Assembly: GCA_951406725.2 (NCBI GenBank)
Contig: OX597818.1
Location: forward strand, 111,414,001-111,478,000
DNA length: 64,000 nucleotides
Origin: Octopus vulgaris
Taxonomy: Eukaryota
Direction of reading: 5' to 3'
The notes beneath the pieces were generated by a model that saw only the letters and a program-made list of their open reading frames with translations, was not told the origin of the DNA and did no database searches. This document shows positions 482 to 53,758 of this stretch, in pieces. Both the position numbers and the translations under genes were made by a program. Within the stretch, counting starts at the first letter, position 1, and the number at the start of each line of letters is the position of its first letter.

Positions 482-935
482 AGGAAGTAAAGACACACCG
501 TTTGCCAACAAACGAGATATATTCTCTGTGACAAAACGCAGTGAGTAGCTTGCCCCCTGTTCGAACATGCATCTAGTATATTCGGACTGATAATAACATT
601 GCAATTTTACTGATCACTGCTTAGCGCTCCCTCCCTAAACGACATTGAATATCTAAATTCTTAATTGTTGTTAGTATCAACAAAGCGAAAGTTTATATTA
701 AAGCTACAATAATGAAGAACCACTTGTTTATCGTGTCTCTCATAACATACACATTAACAACACAAACAACACAAACAACACTAAGTACTTAAAAATCTAC
801 TTGTTTCGATGTTAATGTTAAACAGTTTTAGCACGTTAACTAATTGAGGTTTCCGGTGACCTCATTCTTCAGAACAATTTCTAATTCCGGTTTGACATCC
901 ACAGATAGTTTCGACGCCTGCTGGGTTTCGGCTAC

Positions 936-978
936 TCCACATTGATAAGGGGCAAATACCCCGAAACTAGTCTGTGGA
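936..978 (+). ncRNA. Minimal type I hammerhead ribozyme, U3-A8 core variant, in PLE-like pLTR fragment
   Basis: TCCACA-TTGATAA-GGGG caaata CCCC-GAAA-CTAG-TC-TGTGGA: stems I and II pair fully, stem III palindromic, GUC cleavage triplet; inverted copy of its 3' half at ~894-913. Confidence 0.8.
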
Positions 979-2429
979 TGTCGTACCAGCAAAAGGAAGC
1001 TGTTGAATTTCTAATTCCTAATACGACATCTGTGTATCATGGACGTATCACAAAACAAACATTCATTTCTAGTTCATCCTAAACACGAAATAATCCATAA
1101 TTAAAAATTGCACTTGTTTTAATTATGGTCCATCCTGACAGATTAATATAATAAAAGACATCCCAACCATGGCATTAACGACTACTTTATGCTATATGTT
1201 CTGTCTTTATATACGACAGTAGGGTATGATTCACGAAACCGTTGCTGCTAAATCTCTCCGGTCAGGCCACCAGATTGGAGCCAATTCGTTCGCTCGCATA
1301 ACACATGTTTCCCCTTCTAAGTGGACTGTGTGAGAATTAAGTGCCTTCTGAAGTATCTAAGCGGAATGTCGACACTATATCTAGTAAGACCACACCATAT
1401 TCACTTGATAAATTGCAGCTGTCTCTCTTTTTCACTTTCTTTCTCTCTCTTCCTCTCACTCTTTCATCTGATCTGCTTCTTTTTTTCACTTTTCCTTTTG
1501 CCGGTTAACTTTCGTTATTGATCGTTCTTATTTAACTTCTTATTTTCTTAAATATTCTTCGCCTGCCGCATAATATTGAGATAAATCTGACATGACATTT
1601 AACCAAAGATAATCAATGAAGAGGGGAAAAAAAATCGATCATGCTAAAAGACAAGGAAAAACCAAATAAACAAAAACAATGAAACTGCTCTGAAAAACCC
1701 TCGTAGAATTTGTCGTCAATAACCAAATTCCAGCCAATCCTGGAATTTAACTCATCGAACAAATATCGAATTGTACTGAATGCCCTTGGAAGAACAGACT
1801 CTTGTTCTGTTTAAGGTGAATGTCTCAGAATTTAGTAAAATTACAAAACAGAACGTTGCTTTCTTATCGTTGTCCTTTGTTCTTCCAGTTTCTTTAGTTT
1901 TTCTTTTCTTGTATTTCCAAAAGCTTCTCTCACTAAATTTCTCACACTATCCTACTATGTTTTACTTGCAGATCTTAAAATACATGAAAAGGACAATAAT
2001 CTTCTTTTTGTTTTTATGTGTGTGTGGGAGTAACTGTGTTTATGAATGTTTTAGTGTAGTTTTCAGCTGTCGTGTCACCACCAACGACATGTCACGCTGA
2101 CTTCCAGATATTCTAATGAAGACACAACTGTGCAGCATTTTAAAAAATGGATTTATCACTTGTTCGATCTGTTTTATAATAGCTATGAAGACACTCGCTG
2201 CTGTTGTTACTGCTGTTTAGCCAGTCGTGATCAAAAGCGTTCCGACAGTGACTGTTGAGCCTTTATGTTTATTATAGGAATACAGTACTATAAAATGTCC
2301 GATGTCCTCTTTTTCTTTCTAAGAAATGATGTGATTTAAGGAAATTTGACTGCTATTTCTAACATGCAGGATAGATATGCAATGGCTTCTTCATCATCTG
2401 GAGTTGATGTGAAGAATAGTGCAACACTA

Positions 2430-2830
2430 TTCTTTTCCACTCTAGGCACAAAGCTCGAAATTTTTGGGGAGGGGTCCGGTCGATTAGATCAACCCCAGTA
2501 TGCAAATGGTACTTATTTAATCGACCCCGAAAGGAAGAAAGGCAAAGTCGACTTCGGCGGAATTTCAACTCAGAATGTAAAGACAGAAGAAATACCTATT
2601 TCTTTACTACCCACAAGGGGCTAAACACAGAGAAGACAAACAAGGACAGACAAACGGATTAAGTCGATTACATCGACTCCAGTGCATAACTGGTACTTAT
2701 TTAATCGATCCCGAAAGGATGAAAGGCAAAGTCGACCTCGGCGGAATTTGAACTCAGAATGTAACAGCAGACGAAATACCGCTAAGCATTTCGCCCGGAA
2801 TGCTAACGATTCTGCCAGCTCGCAGCCTTA
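2430..2830 (-). mobile_element. SINE family B, two units in tandem (younger copy joined to a headless older copy)
   Basis: Block TTTAATCGACCCCGAAAGG...AAAGTCGAC.TCGGCGGAATTT.AACTCAGAATGTAA occurs twice (~2516 and ~2700), each with a different tail. Confidence 0.8.
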
Positions 2831-3135
2831 CAAATAGTGCAACATTATTGACAGAGGAAAGAAGGCAACGGACCAAAAGAGGAGAGAAGTCCCCAAAAAT
2901 AACAGACGTAGATCTTATCTGTTGAAATGATGTAAAGGGTAAATTTCTGCATTAGATAAGATTTTGAGTTTAGATTCTGTTTGTGTTAGGATCAGCTTTA
3001 ACGTTTATACAGTTTGATCTCCGAAATAAATTTGTGTAATATGATAATAGATTAAAAAGAGAAGGATGTGTTTCAAGAGGACTATGACATCATCATTGAA
3101 TTGTGGTACTTATGTGTTTGTGTATATAAGCATAT

Positions 3136-3640
3136 ATCACGCAATCATGATCGACCAGACTGCCGGATGCACTTTGTATCATTTTAGCTTTCAAATGATA
3201 CCACCCCGCTGGTTAGGTGAGCAACCCAAAACCCTCCACTTCCTCATCGGAAGGGTTGACAACATCGCCGGTGTAACCCATTTACAGCTAAGTGGACTGT
3301 AACAACTTCATGCTAAAAAAGTGTTTTGCTCGAAAGTCCCCATCTGGCGGTCGTGAATGCAGTCCCGTAAACACAACGCCCTATGCCTCCTTAGTCTTCT
3401 CTCAGAGTGTGACAAGGTTGGCCCTTTGAAATATAGATACAAGAGAAACAGGAAGAAAGAGCGAGAGAAAGTTGAAGTGAAAGAGTACAGCAGGGTTCAC
3501 CACCACCCGCTGCCATAGCCTTGTGGACCTTTAGGTGTTTTTGCTCAATAAACACTCACAACATCCGATCTGGGAATCGAAACCGCTATCCCACGACCGC
3601 GAGTCCACTGCCCTAACAACTGGGACATTGCGTCTCCACT
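3136..3640 (-). mobile_element. Mosaic of SINE fragments (family D tail and head, A/E-type pieces)
   Basis: 3440-3640 is the reverse complement of the head of the element at 61799; 3136-3230 matches its tail. Confidence 0.65.
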
Positions 3641-4047
3641 CTTTCTAATAACAACACATTGCTACATACTGAAATGGATTCAGTTACTACCAAACAGACA
3701 AGATTATTATTAAGGTTAGGCGACATAAATTAAAGTAACTCGTTAAAAAATGAAACATTCTTAATTTGAAAGCTGTTTTGGTATACAGTGTTGTGAGGGT
3801 AAACAACCATAAAAATAAGACGTGAGAATGTAAAGAGAGTGGAACAATAAATATGTTGCGAAATTACCAGTCCAAGTGCACTCGAAAAGTTTTATGACAA
3901 CTCTATAAAATATCATGTGACAGAATAAGGTAGGTGTATGCGTGTGTGTGTGTGGGGGGGGGGGCGTAAGTGGCATTCCGACTGATACACACGCACTCAC
4001 ACACACACATACACATGCATGGAAACAAACGCATATACATTTCTATA

Positions 4048-4270
4048 TCTTTACTACCCACAAGGGGCTAAACACAGAGGGGACAAACAAGGACAGACAA
4101 ACGGATTAAGTCGATTATATCGACCCACAGGACGCAACTGGTACTTAATTTATTGCCCCTCCCCCGAAAGGTCGACCTCGGCGGAATTTGAACCCAGAAC
4201 GTAACCGCAGACGAAATACCGCTAAGCATTTCGTCCGGCGTGCTAACGTTTTTGCCAGCTCGCCACCTTG
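4048..4270 (-). mobile_element. SINE family B
   Basis: Near-complete match to 2597-2830. Confidence 0.8.
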
Positions 4271-4334
4271 AAACAAACACATATTTGTCCATAAATGTAT
4301 ATGCATTTATGTGTATACATAACAATATGTATAT

Positions 4335-4560
4335 CTTTTATCTTTTACATGTTTCAGTCATTGGAATGCGCTTATGCTTCAGGAACGCCTGAAAGGGTTT
4401 AGTCGAAGAAATCGACTCCTACTACCTATTTCTTTTAAAGCCTCGTACTTATTCTCTAGGTTACATTTGCCGAACCGTTAAGTTACGGAAACATAAACAA
4501 AATAGCACCGGTGCTCAACAGACAGTGGGAGATAGAGTCATATACAAAATAGAACACACA
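4335..4560 (-). mobile_element. SINE family C, 3' portion, diverged
   Basis: TGTTTCAGTCATT...TTTAGTCGAAGAAATCGAC...GCCGAACCGTTAAGTTACGG matches 22468-22680. Confidence 0.6.
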
Positions 4561-19025: not shown

Positions 19026-20537
19026 TTAGATATCATTTGAAAACATCGCTGCACAATTTGGTAAGAAAGCAAACAAGATTAATTATTAAAGTTTGTTAAA
19101 TTAATTTGTATAGAAATATTTCTAGGAAAAGTCAGCACTTTCATAGCTACACAAACAAACACGCCTATTTCTGCTACATATATGCACACACACATCCGAA
19201 CGTTCATACACACATACATACTTATATACATGTACATACACATACGTAGAACCATACACACTTCAATACAGGTGTGCGTGCGTAGCTGCGTGCGTAGCTG
19301 CGTGCGTAGCTGCGCGCGTGTGTGAAGGTAGACTGTGAGTGTATGAGTTGTTTCCTACAATCTTCCTGGTTGTTGATCGTTTAGCAAGATATATATTCAT
19401 TTTATATACACTGACATACATAAATACATACATTCGCATATACACAGACACAAATACAGGCATACGTATGAATGTGCATACTTACGTATGTAATTACATA
19501 CACACATTGCAACCCGTAGATACACTCGTGTATATATATATACATATATACATACATAGATGTTTGAGAAAAGCACCATTCTGTCAAAATATACATGATT
19601 TACGTGTTACACCCAGTTGATATGTCATAACAGATCTTTTTCTAATTATCGTCGCTGTTTTCCGTTTTCTTTTCCTTCCTTCCCCCGCTTATTATATGAT
19701 TTACTTAATAGAAAAATATAGGTGTTGCGCACACCGATACGAATTTATATACATCAACTCTACATCATAAACCATAACGACAATCACCCATCATCATCAT
19801 CATCATCAGCTTAACTTCCACTGTTATTGTCATCACCATCGATTTATCACACTTAGAACAACAACGCATACATAGACACAAACACGGGAAGAAAAACTGA
19901 AAATAAATTTAATAACAAACAAGGAAAATCGCAAAAAAAAAAAAAAAATATCGTCACTTCCCGTTCACGCGCACAAATTCAGACTCAGACGAACAGATTA
20001 TCAATGGTTGAGTTTGCAAAAGATTTTAGCAAATTTTGGCAACGCTTCTCAAAATCACAAAATTACATTAAATTTTCTAAGGTAGAAGAAAAATATTTCG
20101 TGAAAGATACTGTTTTTTTTTTTTTGATATATAAGTAACGTGAAAAATATATTAATATCTATATTAATATAATTTGTCTGTCTGCACACCACTCTATCTC
20201 ATTAATAAATATATATTTACTTTTTGCATTCCACCAATTCTATAATGTATCATTAAACTTTTATTGGATAAACACACACACACACACACACGCATATATA
20301 TACATACATACATACATACACACACACGCATATATATACATACACATACACACATATATAAATATGTATTTAGACACATACATGTATGTATATATACGAA
20401 TATAAAGTGTTGTATATATATATATGTTTGCGTGTGTATGTGTGTGTGCATGTAAGTATTTTCTTATGTATATGTATACATATATTTGAATGTTTATACA
20501 TACCCATATATATATGTTTGCACATTTATATATATAT

Positions 20538-21920
20538 AAACAGGGAAACAGATCCCTCGCAGTCAACTATCGCCCAATCTCACTCACCTCCCACATCATT
20601 AAAGTGTTTGAAAGAGTGTTAAGATCAAGGATAGCTGACTTCCTGGAGACCCACAAACTCCTAAATTCAAATCAGCATGGCTTTCGCTGTGGCAGGGACT
20701 GTCTAACACAGCTCTTACACCACATTGAAGATGTACTCAAAGCCTTGGGAACAGGTTCGAACTCTGACGTCATATACTTTGACTTCAGTAAAGCGTTCGA
20801 CAGGGTAGACCATAACATCCTACTCTCAAAATTGGCAAATGTTGGAATCCGTGGAAAAGTTCTACACTGGATTCAGTATTTCCTAGCGAATAGAACACAA
20901 CATGTTGTAGTTGATGGAGTCCATTCAAACCCAGCAAAAGTCACCAGCGGTGTTCCCCAGGGAACTGTTTTGGGTCCGCTACTCTTCATAATTTATGTAA
21001 ACGACCTTTCCAGTGTCGTACATCACTGCAAAGTGAGAATATTCGCTGATGACACTAAGCTCCAGCAAATCGTCAATGAAGAAGCAGACCGAACTCAACT
21101 CCAGTCTGACCTATATGCTGTGAGTCAATGGGCAGACAGAAACAAAATGCAACTGAATGAGGGAAAATTTGAACTGATGCATTTTGGAAGAAATTCCTCA
21201 CTAAAACAACCATACTCTCTTTCTTCAGGGGAACCGCTCACAGCCTCTAACAATATCAGAGACCTGGGTGTAATTGTTGATGACGATCTCAGTTGGAGTG
21301 CACACATCAACAAGAAGGTCGATACAGCTCGTAGGATGAGTTCCTGGATCTTAAGAACTTTCCGGTCCAGAGAACAAGGTGTCATCATACCACTTTTTTC
21401 ATCCTTTGTACGGCCACACCTTGAATACTGCTGCCCACTGTGGTCTCCTCACACAAGACAAAACATCTCCAGAATTGAGTCACCCCAGAGGGCTCTCACT
21501 AAACAAATTGAAGGCATGGCTGCTCTCGATTATTGGGATCGCCTTAAAGCCTTGAAACTTTACTCCCTCCAGCGTCGCCGTGAGCGGTAGATCATTTGTA
21601 CGATGTGGAAAATATACCGCCAACTTTGCCCAAACGACCTAAACATTAGCTTCAAGGTTCATCCGAGACTTGGACCACGGGCTATACGTCCCCTGCCAAA
21701 TTCAAGATCACAACATACATGTACACTGCAACATAATTTCTTTTCCTCAACAGGCCCTGCCCTATTTAACATTGTCCCGAGGGAGATCAAAGAGGAAAAG
21801 GATCCCATCAACTTCAAACAGAGTCTGGATAGATTCCTTCAAAGAATACCAGATAAGCCACCCATAATTGGATACAACTCACCCAACAAGAACTCACTAC
21901 TTGAACAAAACTTGACTTAA
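20538..21920 (+). pseudogene. Non-LTR reverse transcriptase ORF2 remnant with one in-frame stop
   Basis: ORFs 20490-21590 and 21603-21920 are in the same frame; the N-terminal residues of the first ORF are microsatellite-derived. Confidence 0.9.
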
Positions 21921-35068: not shown

Positions 35069-35858
35069 ATGTCTGTCTACTATCTATCCACAGATAGACA
35101 GATTTAGAGATAGAGAGAGAGAAATAGAGAGATAGGCATACATAAATATAGGGATGAATTGAGAGGGAGTGAATGACACATTTTTTTAAGGCTATCAAGA
35201 ATCCTTAGATTTTAATTACTATCCAGATACCCTTGTGACACACTAGACACCGCGGGACACTGTGGAACCGGGAATCGATGTTCATTACAGCCTCGACTGC
35301 AGCTGATCGTCGGATGGGGATCAACGTTTGTAAGCAACATGGTGACTCGTTGGTTAGTGGACATTGCCGAAAGGAAGTATCAAGGTTTGACGATTTTTCT
35401 TTACTTTCTGTTCAATTATTTCTACATATTTTCTATTGCTTATCATCGCTATTTCTATTTTGTTAAACACTTCTGTAAAATTGTATCGGTGCTAGTTGAA
35501 CATTAGGCGTAAGGATCTTTTATCTCTAGTACGGTCAAAGACGTCTCCATCTCAATTCTAAATTTATTTATTGGTTTTATTCACAATATTTGATTTCCCC
35601 CACATATTGTGCGCATTAATTTTCAACCAAGCTAAGTGAAGATATCCTCTCTTGGTAATTTAGACATGTACTTTACACATACACACACACACATATATAT
35701 ATATATTTATATTTGTATATATATATTTATAAAAATATTTATATTTGTATATATATATTTATATTTGTATATATATATTTATAAAAAGATCTCTTCGTAC
35801 AAATCTAACCCTGATGGACTGACCACATACGATACAGCTAAGGGTCAGACCCGATTCT

Positions 35859-36240
35859 GATTGGTCAACACGTTGATGACGTCTAATTCTGCTAGACTGG
35901 ACAGGATACAGACAAGGGGCAGAGATTAGTCAGAATATTGATGACGTCCTTTTCTGCTTGACTAGTCACCTAACAGGTACAGACAAGGGGCAGATCTAAT
36001 ACAGCTATAAGTCGTGATTGGTCAGAATTTTGATGACGTCCCGTTCTGCTTAACTAAGCCACCTAACGAAACGATTGTTCAAAACAGGATACAGACAAGA
36101 GGCAGTTATAATACAGCGATAGGTCACGATTGGTCAGAATGTTGATGACGTCCCGTTCTGCTTGACTAAGCCACCTAACGAAACGATTGGTCAAAACGTT
36201 GATGACGTCACGTTACGCTGGACTGACCAGTGTTATAAAA
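35859..36240 (+). promoter_or_regulatory. Array of reverse-CCAAT plus CRE-like modules ending in a TATA box; probable element-borne Pol II promoter
   Basis: GATTGGTCA-N6-TGATGACGTC units at 35859, 35924 (GATTAGTCA), 36016, 36128, 36185; TATAAAA at 36234-36240. Confidence 0.5.
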
Positions 36241-36552
36241 CCTGAACAATTCACAAGATTCGCCAGAATCATCCAGCGAACACCACAGTTGCTCAAGGTA
36301 AAAATGAATTCCTCTCTCTTTCAGGAACATCAGTTTTTTGTATTGACTACATATCGCCGCTTTGATCTGTTTTTTGTATTGGATGCATGTCGCCACCGTG
36401 AACCGCTGCATCATGCACTTTAAACATATAGCATGAACGAACTCACTTCAAACTATATATATGAACTTTATGATGTCTGACACCGTTGTGTATTATAAAT
36501 GAATTTCTTGTGATTGATAGCATGAACTATCTTTTTTTATATATAACTTTTT

Positions 36553-36590
36553 TTGATAAGGTTCATTTCAGGAACTGAAACATGTTATAA
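36553..36590 (+). ncRNA. Hammerhead-like motif, U3-A8 core, stem I poorly paired
   Basis: TTGATAA-GGTTC atttcag GAACT-GAAA-CATG-TT. Confidence 0.45.
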
Positions 36591-36648
36591 TGTATATATA
36601 AAAATTAAAAATTGTATAATATAGCAGCATTTTCGAACTTCATTTTTT

Positions 36649-36701
<53 letters not shown>

Positions 36702-37164: not shown

Positions 37165-37483
37165 AAGGCGCGGGATTTAGTCGTTAGAGAATTCGGTTCA
37201 CGATCGTAAGGTGGTAAGTTCAATTTCCGGCGACGCGTGTCCTTAGGCAAGACACTTTATTTCACGTTGTTCCAGTCCACTCAGCTGGCAAAAACGAGTA
37301 GTACCTGTATTTGAAAGGACCGGGCTTGTTACACATTGTGCCACGCCGAAATTCCTTGAGGACTACGTTAAGGGTGCACGTGTCTGTGGAGTACTCAGCC
37401 ACTTGCACGTTAATTTCATAAGCAAGCTGTTCCGTTGATCGGATCAGCAGGGACCCTCGTCGTCGGAACCGTCTGAGTGCTCC
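37165..37483 (+). mobile_element. tRNA-derived SINE family E
   Basis: tRNA-like head, GTGTCCTTAGGCAAGACACTTTATTTCACG core, body matching 42557 and 62152. Confidence 0.8.
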
Positions 37484-37484
37484 A

Positions 37485-37531
<47 letters not shown>

Positions 37532-37603
37532 TTATACTGAAACTAGGTAAATAGATTCTTCGAACAGGGACAGTTAGTAACGACACCTGCTGGGTCTGAC
37601 TAC

Positions 37604-37646
37604 GCTGCATTGATAAAGGGCAAATACCCTGAAACATGTCTGCAGC
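37604..37646 (+). ncRNA. Minimal type I hammerhead, U3-A8 core, same family as 936-978
   Basis: GCTGCA-TTGATAA-AGGG caaata CCCT-GAAA-CATG-TC-TGCAGC; compensatory changes in all three stems versus 936-978. Confidence 0.85.
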
Positions 37647-37874
37647 TGTCTGACTGGCAGGATGAAGCGGCTGACCTCCCTGTTCGAAGGTTTATAATGG
37701 ACGCAGGTTGTGTGTCAAATAGCTAGCTTGAGGCGGTGGCCTCTTGGAGCTAATCAGCGACAGCTTTAGTCTTATTTTTATAAGACTGCCATATAAGTAT
37801 GGCGATAACTATTAATTTCCAGTAATGCTGCCGTAATCTCCTTTAGAGAGACTTAGTAATTTTAATATTTCTAT

Positions 37875-37906
<32 letters not shown>

Positions 37907-37980
37907 CACATGCTCCATATATATATAAGTTCAGCAAAATTTCGATTCAAATGAATATGGTGCTTAAGTTGTGTATTTTG

Positions 37981-47672: not shown

Positions 47673-48105
47673 TATATACATACAATTATATATTTGTTTT
47701 TTTTATTCCTTTTACTTGTTTTAGTCATTAGACGGTGGCCATTCCGGGAACCAGCTTGAAGGGCTTTAGTTTGGTATTTATTTTATCAGGAACTTTTATC
47801 GATCTGCTTGGTTACATCGATGTAAATAAACATCACCGGTTCCCAAGCGAGGGTAGAACAACCAAGCTTTTACATGGTTCTTTTGACAATCTTTTTCTAA
47901 AAAGTGAAACCGGTAAAGTAAATAAACATCTTTTAAAATTGCATTTTCAAACCTTCTTTCATATGTAATTCCACTCGTGCGGTACCTTACAACTCCACTT
48001 TGTTATATATATATACACACACACTTGATATAATATGATTCTTTGTATGTATGTATGTATGTATGTATGTATGTATGTATGTATGTATGTATGTATGTAT
48101 GTATG

Positions 48106-49320: not shown

Positions 49321-49330
49321 TAATAATAAT
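49085..49330. repeat. (AAT)n/(GAT)n microsatellite
   Basis: Direct reading. Confidence 0.95.
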
Positions 49331-49851
49331 GACAGAAAGATAGATCCGAATAGGCCATACATCATATTGAAAGACTTCAGACAAAAATCTTGCCTCCTCA
49401 TTGATATGACTGTCCCAATCGATATAAACGTATCTGCCAAGACCTACCAAAAACTGAGCAAATATAAAGATCTTGAAATAGAAATTGGCAAAATATGGAA
49501 CCTGAAGAATAAAACAATACCTATTGTCATAGATGCCCTGGGATTGATAGCAAAAGGGGATGATTGCTACCTAACTCAGATACCAGGAACCCCAAAATGG
49601 CAGAAATTCAAAAGATAGTGCTCATGGGAACTGCTCATATCCTACGCAAAATACTTTCTTTGTAATCTCAAGTTTTAAAACAAACATAATTTTCGTATGG
49701 TTTTTCAGGCATTCACTAGTACAACACTAAGTACAAAACCAAATATATGACACCCCAGGCATAACACCAACATGAACTTCTAACCTGTTGTCTCTTGAGG
49801 TATCTGGGTGAGCTTGGAGTCAACTTGTACAAATACAAAGCAAAGTCAAAC

Positions 49852-49853
<2 letters not shown>
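49331..49853 (+). mobile_element. R4/Dong-like LINE 3' end (restriction-like endonuclease domain plus 3' UTR)
   Basis: NRPYIILKD...LLIDMTVPID...KLSKYKDLEIEI...PIVIDALG, then EIQKIVLMGTAHILRKIL; bounded by (AAT)n on both sides. Confidence 0.9.
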
Positions 49854-49924
<71 letters not shown>

Positions 49925-49926
<2 letters not shown>

Positions 49927-50439
49927 AGTACATACAGACCGAACCATCAAGGCCAATAAACCAGATATTGTTGTGAAAGACCAAAACAATAAAGTTTGCT
50001 TATTGATCGACATGAGCATCCCCTGTGATCATAATATCTCAGCGAAAGAGTTTGACAAGCTCAGAAAATATAAAGACCTACTCATTGAAATTGAGAAAAT
50101 GTGGCATCTCAAGGCGGTTACAATACCAGTGATCGTAGGAGCACTAGGAATGATCAAGAAGGGAACTGAAAATTAGATGAGAATGATCCTTGGCTTACCA
50201 TCCCTGCAAGAAGTGCAAAAGATTGTCTTAACTGGTACATCACACGTATTGAGAAGAGCATTGTCGATGTGAGAACTGTTGCTGCTCATGTATTTTAATT
50301 TAACTTTAAAAAAAAAAAATGAACGAACTATTGAGTTTGGTTTAATGGCCTACCAATGTATACTATGAGTTTCTTTGCCCTAGGAGTTGGGAAGACACTC
50401 GGCAAGAAATGGAAGCAAATTTGAAAGAAGAAAAACAGA

Positions 50440-50441
<2 letters not shown>
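49925..50441 (+). mobile_element. Second R4/Dong-like LINE 3' end, different family
   Basis: TDRTIKANKPDIVVKD...LIDMSIPCD...KLRKYKDL...PVIVGALG, then QEVQKIVLTGTSHVLRRAL; bounded by (AAT)n. Confidence 0.9.
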
Positions 50442-50490
<49 letters not shown>

Positions 50491-50493
<3 letters not shown>

Positions 50494-50965
50494 GGAAGGA
50501 GTAAAACCGCCCAGGTGTTGATAATTTCGATCTTATTCCGTCCGTTTAATTTCGACTTAAGGATCAGTCTCAGTCTGCCCAAGTACGCCACCTTAAATTT
50601 TTCTGTCATTTCTTTCTCCAACAATTTATCCATTTCCAAAAGGAATATAAGAGACGCCATGAAAATATAGCCACGCTTGTCCATTGGTCATTTTGCAACA
50701 AGTATGGACTTGACAGAGCAAAAAATTGGTACAACCACAAACCTGAAGGCATCATCGAAAATGATTATACAATGATCCTGTGGGATTTTATGATTCAGTG
50801 CGACCATGAGATAGAAAATAGGAAGCCAGACATAGTTTTAATTGAGAAAGAAAGCAGACTATGCTGGATCATAGATATAGCAAGCCCGCTGACAACAAGG
50901 TATGCGATAAGGAAGAAAGAAAAGTCGATAGATATGACAGATTAGCTTGGGAAGTTAAGCAGTTT
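50491..50965 (+). mobile_element. Third R4/Dong-like fragment with inverted 5' segment
   Basis: 50491-50638 minus: YLGRLRLILKSKLNGRNKIEIINTWAV; 50638-50965 plus: EYKRRHENIATLVHW...ILWDFMIQCDHEIENRKPDIVLI...IIDIA. Confidence 0.85.
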
Positions 50966-52529: not shown

Positions 52530-53166
52530 TTTATGTTTTAAGAAGTTTTTTTGAAAATTAGAAAGGGGAAAAAAAGAAAATTGCAATGTTTTTTGTAAAA
52601 GAATAATGATAAAAATGTACAAAAATTAAAAAATAAGTTCTCCGATACATTGTGAGTTCGTTGTGTATCTTGAGTTTTATGGTTGTTTACCAAAAAGTTA
52701 CCTTGAGGTGTTAAGATCCAAAGGGATTAAGAGCATGTGATGTGTTGTGTTGTTGAATACAGCATGTTGCAGGACAGGAAGTAGTAGTAATTGTGGTCCT
52801 GGTTCTTCAGTTCCTGTGTTGTGAGTAAGGGGAGAAAACTCTTTTGAGTTCTTCAATAAAACCCAAATTATAAAACTATCATTTTAGCTTCATTTGCATT
52901 ATCTTTTTTATATATAATTGCTTGTTAACTTAACTTTCAGATTTTAACACTTTATTTATATTATTTTCTAATAATATAAAACTGCATAGACAATTGCATT
53001 TCAAATTGTCATATCATTTATAATAAAAATGATAGTAGTAACAACAACAATAGTGAAAATGATATTTAAAGAATATAAGTTTTAGCTTGAAGTGGTGAAT
53101 GCATGGTATCTTTATATATTTGTGTTAGTCCATCCATGAAGAGTGAGGTAGAGGAAGGAAGTTTGA

Positions 53167-53277
53167 TCAACGAGGAGTTTGCATATTAAGTTGTGTTTGG
53201 AATTTTTCAATAAAGAGATTCTCCTTGTTAATTCTCTCCTGTGTGGTGATCCCGTCTTTACATTGGTAGAAGGGGAA
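53167..53277 (-). pseudogene. C-terminal remnant of Penelope GIY-YIG endonuclease ORF
   Basis: Hand translation FPFYQCKDGITTQERINKENLFIEKFQTQLNMQTPR*; R..KE..FI......LN pattern typical of GIY-YIG C-termini; below the ORF-track cutoff. Confidence 0.75.
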
Positions 53278-53758
53278 TGACAATTTGAAATGCAATTGTC
53301 TATGCAGTTTTATATTATTAGAAAATAATATAAATAAAGTGTTAAAATCTGAAAGTTAAGTTAACAAGCAATTATATATAAAAAAGATAATGCAAATGAA
53401 GCTAAAATGATAGTTTTATAATTTGGGTTTTATTGAAGAACTCAAAAGAGTTTTCTCCCCTTACTCACAACACAGGAACTGAAGAACCAGGACCACAATT
53501 ACTACTACTTCCTGTCCTGCAACATGCTGTATTCAACAACACAACACATCACATGCTCTTAATCCCTTTGGATCTTAACACCTCAAGGTAACTTTTTGGT
53601 AAACAACCATAAAACTCAAGATACACAACGAACTCACAATGTATCGGAGAACTTATTTTTTAATTTTTGTACATTTTTATCATTATTCTTTTACAAAAAA
53701 CATTGCAATTTTCTTTTTTTCCCTTTCTAATTTTCAAAAAAACTTCTTAAAACATAAA

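Follow-up and report, generated by a model that had tools for sequence, protein, structure and literature searches.

Metazoan non-LTR retrozymes are described as non-coding repeats with units of 150–450 bp (350–390 bp in mussel) and a GC content below 50%, each unit carrying one type I hammerhead and being predicted to form a highly self-paired circle; they occur as dispersed monomers, co-exist with Penelope-like elements (PLEs) and are flanked by longer target duplications, the criterion being >4 bp (PMC7229834; bioRxiv 10.64898/2026.07.22.740005). A cycle of transcription, cutting, circle formation and Penelope-type copying has been proposed for them (PMC7229834; PMC4209133), and in the available parts of this literature the link to PLEs is built on co-occurrence, shared hammerheads and terminal similarity. 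In PLE hammerheads helix I has 6 bp and helix II 4 bp, and helix III is a short palindrome that functions in a dimer, with U3-A8 covariation in Schistosoma mansoni, and circle-templated insertion of more than one unit was proposed in the same work (PMC4209133). The described anatomy of PLEs includes pLTR tandems, inverted 5′ copies, a 30–40-bp tail and a microsatellite bias (PMC8557442).

The window, by which we mean the whole 64-kb stretch of Octopus vulgaris DNA analysed here, contains two hammerheads that invite comparison with these systems. The copies that carry them are paralogues, members of two subfamilies (A and B) of one non-coding mobile repeat of ~365 nt, which is best read as a metazoan non-LTR retrozyme and adds an example to that published class. 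It shares with described members the unit length, the low GC content, the single type I hammerhead, the self-paired predicted circle, a target duplication (here 13 bp), the co-existing PLEs and the dispersed monomers. Unlike the metazoan retrozymes in the available parts of PMC7229834 and the preprint, three of the four octopus families have a U3-A8 core, subfamily A occurs as insertions of 0.4–2.3 units with no long tandem arrays seen, and copies of the family end at two fixed UA-rich sites and have (TA)n as their target. Unlike the pLTR-derived retrozymes that the available text of Li et al. 2026 describes, the octopus unit showed no DNA similarity to PLE termini at the 95 loci compared. The hammerheads treated in the available sections of PMC4209133 resemble the octopus motif in the U3-A8 pair, the short palindromic helix III and cleavage as a dimer, but are minimal, lack tertiary loops and lie in the pLTRs of RT-coding elements, whereas the octopus motif is a full hammerhead in an ORF-less unit. 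The S. mansoni Sm-alpha hammerhead shares loop II (CAAAUA), a 6-bp stem I and a 4-bp stem II (PMC2632901; PMC6155905), together with an internal loop 1 that has U6-A7-C8 on one strand and U1 on the other (PMC2632901). Relative to Sm-alpha as presented there, octopus families A–C carry U3-A8 in place of C3-G8, and the 3′ side of the internal loop is predicted to be unpaired at the U1 position only.

The retrozyme class, the U3-A8 core, the loops and dimer cleavage are thus all published, and the surprise offered by the ribozyme is modest. What the octopus family adds is evidence at the level of insertions: they end at two internal UA-rich sites and not at the cut, have (TA)n as their target, often carry an inverted 5′ piece and show signs of a single template. 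Our survey of the literature on hammerhead ribozymes, Penelope, retrozymes and octopus returned no octopus retrozyme and no description of the family, which the supplements of PMC7229834 and the preprint may list; a paper on O. vulgaris repeats (PMC13282606) contains no mention of hammerhead, ribozyme or retrozyme.

Two extended hammerheads

A scan of both strands of the window for strict type I hammerheads returned two motifs only, one in each copy:

912..1005, + strand: copy 1, a 94-nt fragment of subfamily B
930-982, + strand: hammerhead of the subfamily B fragment, with core 942-948 and predicted cut after C972
37536..37877, + strand: copy 2, a subfamily A retrozyme insertion with copies at 97–99% (boundaries by blastn against 20 loci)
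37559..37688, + strand: rod-like stem with the hammerhead of copy 2 at its tip (fold z −7.2, 0/200 shuffles)
37559-37570 and 37677-37688, + strand: outer arms of this stem
37598..37650, + strand: extended type I hammerhead of copy 2 (from sequence, scan and pair counts), comprising lower stem I, UAC/U internal loop, stem I and stem II
37610-37616, + strand: its U3-A8 core
37621-37626, + strand: its stem II loop, CAAAUA
37634-37639, + strand: its helix III palindrome
after C37640, + strand: its predicted cut

The initial annotation had reported both motifs as UUGAUAA hammerheads, and all its coordinates and sequences for them proved correct when re-read in the window, among them stem I at 936-941/973-978 and 37604-37609/37641-37646, the upstream decamer common to both copies and the arms enclosing the second. 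It did not observe that UUGAUAA is itself a compensated core, with U3-A8 as its 3-8 pair. Both cores are intact, having N3 U4 G5 A6 N7 R8 A9, G12 A13 A14, A15.1-U16.1, H17 and the 3-8 pair. Judged by sequence, both motifs are full type I hammerheads with predicted self-cleavage after NUH. They are not chance occurrences, because a genome-wide search with the strict core pattern found 569 matches, against none for the reversed control. A pattern with the canonical core matched 44 times, and 11 of the 30 fetched matches were unrelated sequence and were set aside. Rfam returned nothing at gathering score over the whole window and no hammerhead at E ≤ 1 for either copy, which is probably a limit of the library caused by the core variant and the short helix III; two weak matches to miRNA families at copy 1 stem from its inverted piece.

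Over the 53 aligned nucleotides the two copies differ at 11 positions, all of which keep pairing. Ten of them belong to five double changes, of which stem I has three and stem II and the helix III centre one each; the eleventh turns a G.U into an A-U in lower stem I. The 19 unpaired positions are identical. The claim that the copies covary in all three helices stood for stems I and II and needed revision for helix III, where CUAG and CAUG differ within a loop of 2 nt. The folding model does not permit such a loop, which cannot close in the monomer, and the changed positions pair only in a dimer. For a double hammerhead, with stems I and III swapped, the scores were −34.2 and −33.8 kcal/mol, versus −29.0 and −28.2 kcal/mol for two open monomers. 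Families B, C and D are also predicted to form a rod at this place, each from a different sequence.

The repeat and its families

(TA)n is abundant in the O. vulgaris genome (2.8 Gb, 227 contigs). For copy 2, 40 of 2060 candidates were scored, which puts its relatives at 97–99% identity at 40 or more, on many contigs; for copy 1, 40 of 859 candidates were scored, and its relatives at 87–95% likewise number 40 or more. The flanks of subfamily B copies continue into sequence that matches A, and full A and B units are 80% identical. The genome holds at least four families. Their unit spacing is given by natural tandem dimers, found in all four with a hammerhead per unit: 365 (A), 360 (B), 357 (C) and 350 nt (D). 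Families C and D align globally with A and B at 54–60% identity, compared with 21–27% for a shuffled control. Units of the families (350–365 nt, GC 41–48%) have a longest ATG frame of 43–69 aa and one type I hammerhead each, and their circular folds gave z scores of −8.0 to −2.9 (30 shuffles). Two loci (L191 and L214) are older relatives of family C at 72–83% identity, with tandem and inverted pieces, and were missed by the strict core pattern.

Both window copies are sub-unit monomers with a single hammerhead. Three direct dimers and no trimer occur among the 100 subfamily A matches listed of 112. No pair of LTRs surrounds an internal region, and the loci share no flank beyond the unit; no ORF lies in the unit and no RT frame is attached to it across the 144 loci from the retrozyme searches. 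Contigs from four presumed-RNA runs cover parts of the unit; ends, strand and circles are invisible in them, and their deepest coverage falls on a flanking repeat.

Covariation and the level of selection

For a broader view of the motif, 131 pattern matches were reduced to 112 copies by removing 13 that fit no family and 6 truncated in stem I. The 3-8 pair is U3-A8 in 88 of these, C3-G8 in 21 and something else in 3, and the helix III centre is a palindrome (CAUG, CUAG or CCGG) in 104. The U, A and C of the internal loop are kept in 106, 107 and 105 copies and the opposite U, equivalent to U1, in 112 of 112; the search pattern contained neither UAC nor the opposite U, while the first 12 columns did enter the truncation filter. 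The contact between loop II and an extended stem I that the initial annotation had suggested corresponds to the motif published for S. mansoni, and it is predicted for the octopus copies.

A covariation alignment was made from 38 copies hand-picked to span the subfamilies, 35 of them distinct. In these 35, 93.1% of cells are paired and 15 of 17 pairs show double changes, including C3-G8/U3-A8 in the core; slid controls were 25–53% paired. On four of five measures none of 500 shuffles scored as high, and on the fifth, the count of further pair types, 59 of 500 did; related sequences inflate these figures, and the shuffle result is not a probability. Selection on structure, read earlier from the two window copies, is thereby borne out: the larger alignment yielded the opposite of mostly uncompensated stem substitutions. 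Helix III comprises two invariant pairs and the palindromic centre. Among subfamily-majority cells 100 of 102 pair; the two that do not are the basal pair of stem II in D, which is C.A, and the palindrome of an intermediate group, which is mixed. The tree has a graded series of B1, B2, B3 and A, with median identities to the majority of 0.93, 0.94, 0.95 and 0.99 (the last inflated by best-hit sampling), and places a separate CUAG to CAUG switch within D. Family D, whose loci include L071, L095 and L102, has the canonical C3-G8 core, and in 14 of 21 copies stem II starts with a C.A mismatch at its base; the sub-branch of D that made the switch did so independently of subfamily A.

Where a copy departs from the majority of its own subfamily, the change breaks a pair 106 times and preserves pairing 81 times. 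In 29 copies of subfamily A, chosen by a 21-mer outside the core, private changes affect 11 of 418 core positions and 69 of 2673 outside it (both 2.6%, P 0.87). The core appeared less mutated in 19 copies of subfamily B (4/285 versus 84/1820, P 0.01), a figure confounded by sampling, as these copies were the best matches to a query that bears the core. Because the core of young copies has accumulated changes at the same rate as the sequence around it, we read inserted young copies as decaying neutrally and selection as probably acting on the lineage of replicating source RNAs and not on the window loci. The covariation between the window copies is best explained as a record of selection on those source RNAs.

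Insertion anatomy

The insertions in the window have the following further features:

37809..37816, + strand: first UA-rich end site (unit ~168-184), read through in copy 2 (from 3′-end mapping of 24 insertions)
37871..37877, + strand: second UA-rich end site (unit ~232-242), at which copy 2 has its 3′ end and leads into (TA)n
37478..37530, unstranded: left flank of copy 2, an (AT)n target, with a 12-mer at 37478-37489
37875..37922, unstranded: right flank of copy 2, (TA)n and the second copy of the 12-mer at 37911-37922
889..913, − strand: inverted 25-nt piece at the 5′ end of the subfamily B insertion, from the 3′ half of the hammerhead
876..888 (left) and 1006-1018 (right), unstranded: 13-bp target-site duplication of copy 1, an exact repeat

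Copy 2 comprises ~342 nt of the circularly permuted 365-nt unit, is truncated at its 5′ end and has one hammerhead; the 12-mer repeat around it may be a target-site duplication.

To sample insertions we took a 21-mer immediately 3′ of the cut; the first 30 of its 112 matches were used, and they represent 24 independent loci. The 3′ ends of 21 fall at unit positions 168–184 or 232–242, two UA-rich sites that together make up 28 of 365 positions, and one further insertion ends at a UA-rich site once a 41-nt deletion is bridged. (TA)n directly follows 19 of the 24, against a background of 9%. An inverted 5′ piece is present in 13, and in 11 of these 13 it ends at the two UA-rich sites. Sizes range from 0.4 to 2.3 units; ten insertions exceed one unit, reaching 836 nt (2.3 units), and repeat the unit seamlessly, entering no ORF. 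None of the 24 starts or ends at the cleavage site: in 23 the sequence continues upstream of the cut for >10 nt, and the remaining one crosses it as well.

Non-majority bases recur within an insertion about tenfold more often than between separate insertions (26 of 126 variant cases versus 154 of 7108, in 45 distinct insertions); seven of the 26 come from one perfect inverted duplication, without which the count is 19 of 119. Such sharing is consistent with a single circular template per insertion. A multimeric transcript with homogeneous units, template jumping or a local duplication after insertion could produce it as well.

A candidate helper

A search for GIY-YIG domains found 148 matches among 150 scored of 6136 candidates, many of them in a 781-residue open frame. 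At 12 of 12 loci picked for this frame it is open, with 95–99.5% identity, and encodes in order RT, a CxxxxCxxC linker and GIY-YIG. The candidate helper family thus has the arrangement that defines a Penelope-like element, an ORF with RT and GIY-YIG between pLTRs. The pLTRs are ~450–550 bp long, contain a minimal U3-A8 hammerhead with an ACAUGU palindrome, and are 99–100% identical within one copy. The relatives found in a protein search number 566, the closest at 59% identity, and none bears a name that settles the clade; the linker motif is the sole basis for the tentative label ‘Neptune/Nematis-like’. One intact element (L143) also has a 479-residue upstream frame (768-2204) with no Pfam match, which overlaps the start of the 781-residue RT/GIY-YIG frame (2126-4468) in another phase.

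A 22-mer from the 3′ end of the helper family has 715 exact matches in the genome. Among 30 loci found with it, 24 were scored as running into (TA)n, as do three more with a variant end motif and two at a second site ~40 nt further on, and one is an internal pLTR; adjacent inversions occur at 2 of the 30 within the 1.5 kb examined, fewer than for the retrozyme. By the sequence at its ends, the intact RT and GIY-YIG element leaves the same insertion footprint as the retrozyme. Several Penelope-like families end in (TA)n, and the footprint names the class of enzyme and not one helper. A fragment of the candidate helper family sits 0.9 kb upstream of copy 2:

35783..36659, + strand: Penelope-like 3′ fragment, 78–82% identical to intact elements (blastn and motif scan), ending in (AT)n
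36553-36586, + strand: its minimal hammerhead, with U3-A8 core and ACAUGU palindrome

A 112-bp tandem repeat at 35972-36197 is part of the 3′ region of this fragment. Clustering of retrozymes beside PLE ends is not significant: the helper 22-mer lies in 2 of 100 retrozyme loci, one being the window, and the other by itself does not differ significantly from the 0.1 expected. The strict core is absent from 47 of 47 PLE loci. When the unit was compared (blastn, word size 7) with the termini of 95 PLE or PLE-like loci, which represent part of the PLE families of the genome, only neighbouring retrozyme copies matched, and these loci offer no support for descent of the unit from a pLTR.

A match between palindromes was considered as a pointer to one particular helper and rejected. 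Such a match is expected by chance, because the hammerheads of PLE or PLE-like elements in this genome include ACAUGU, ACCGGU, ACUAGU and AGUACU, and a cutting heterodimer would need a matching stem I as well, which A and B lack.

Proposed cycle and alternatives

From the observed hammerhead anatomy, covariation, family, permuted unit, insertion anatomy and intact Penelope-like element we infer a cycle whose steps, from transcription onward, would run as follows. A locus with two tandem hammerheads would be transcribed, and the pair would associate into a double hammerhead by way of a swapped stem I and the helix III palindrome of 6 nt, assisted by the contact of loop II with the internal loop, and cut after GUC. 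The monomer would then be ligated to a circle. An endonuclease would nick (TA)n, the freed DNA end would pair with one of the two UA-rich sites of the circle, and RT would copy 0.4 to 2.3 turns, with frequent second priming producing the inverted 5′ piece. We consider it probable overall that the ~365-nt retrozyme, predicted to cut as a dimer and likely to form a circle, is likely copied into (TA)n by a resident Penelope-like RT and GIY-YIG. Counting against such a cycle, only one Xenopus retrozyme dimer out of nine cut in vitro (bioRxiv 10.64898/2026.07.22.740005). The window copies are predicted to be dead ends that are now decaying, because each has a single hammerhead and less than one unit.

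The same element and Penelope-type helper could instead work from a linear template, an uncleaved multimer or a template-jumped monomer with no covalent circle. Hammerheads with a short helix III cut poorly as monomers, according to axolotl data (PMC7229834), and the near-identical pLTRs within helper copies point to re-reading of one template in a long element too. A cleaved linear monomer would end at the cut, yet no sampled insertion does so; insertions attain 836 nt, or 2.3 units, although the 100 listed subfamily A matches include just three direct dimers and no trimer; and circles have been shown for coral, mussel and axolotl retrozymes (PMC7229834). We regard a linear template as unlikely. 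That the unit is instead the truncated 3′ end or solo pseudo-LTR of another autonomous Penelope-like element strikes us as very unlikely: insertions longer than one unit repeat it seamlessly and enter no ORF, the loci have no flank in common beyond it, and the resident PLE hammerheads are minimal, without a CAAAUA loop. A tblastn search of the 144 loci with two PLE proteins matched two, one an old adjoining remnant and the other ~3 kb off. In favour of such a parent are the PLE-like anatomy, the partial sampling of the family and the finding that 24 of 57 Xenopus retrozyme families match known transposable elements, mostly PLEs (bioRxiv 10.64898/2026.07.22.740005).

A LINE (of CR1, RTE or Dong/R4 type, for example) might also move the unit as a SINE-like passenger, the hammerhead trimming its 5′ end. 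LINE RT remnants lie within the window, such LINEs are reported to have been active recently in O. vulgaris (PMC13282606) and copy 1 has its 13-bp target-site duplication, but the unit has neither a single fixed 3′ tail nor 5′ ends at the cut, and its inverted pieces duplicate sequence and mostly fall at the two priming sites, a PLE pattern; we see a slim chance at best for a LINE. Scarcely credible is a regulatory job in place for the window loci as host-selected ribozymes. The strong covariation between the copies and their intact cores would accord with it, but the differences are subfamily diagnostics common to dozens of loci, private changes disrupt more pairs than they preserve, and in subfamily A the core is hit at the background rate.

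Returning to the Penelope-driven circle, a more elaborate version is distinctly unlikely in our estimation and is offered as a conjecture. On this view the genome would preserve a stepwise evolutionary series of a replicating circular RNA. Joint changes of stem I and the helix III palindrome would act as a self-recognition code that restricts each subfamily to cutting dimers with its own members, and the palindrome would also dock the circle on helper RNA; CUAG would have given way to CAUG twice, once from B to A and once in D, and CAUG is the palindrome of the Penelope-like family that is abundant and young. Because intact helper copies and dimer source loci are known, the question of what mobilises animal retrozymes, and how, can be tested directly. 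The young dimer loci and the intact candidate enzyme provide material for direct assay, and the subfamily series forms a natural compensatory-mutation dataset for the hammerhead core, tertiary loops and dimer helix in motifs missed by Rfam.

Other repeats in the window and genome

At 47858-48005 the window contains the end of another repeat (1926 first-look candidates, with copies at 95–97%), which ends in (TA)n and has inverted partial copies, a hammerhead-like core with an ACCGGU palindrome and no ORF within 1.5 kb; it is probably another PLE terminus. Elsewhere in the genome, an AT-rich repeat family (loci L228–L238) has a minimal hammerhead-like core with an ACUAGU palindrome and also ends in (TA)n; its pattern gave 506 matches, compared with 103 for the control. 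A LINE-type RT remnant interrupted by a stop lies at 20490-21920 (RVT_1, E 2.6e-32). Fragments beside (AAT)n runs at 49330-50945 have translations that resemble the restriction-like LINE endonuclease and are presumably akin to Dong/R4; the one fragment checked had no Pfam match. The region 52547-53742 is an inverted repeat with 466-nt arms that are 98% complementary and 264 nt apart.
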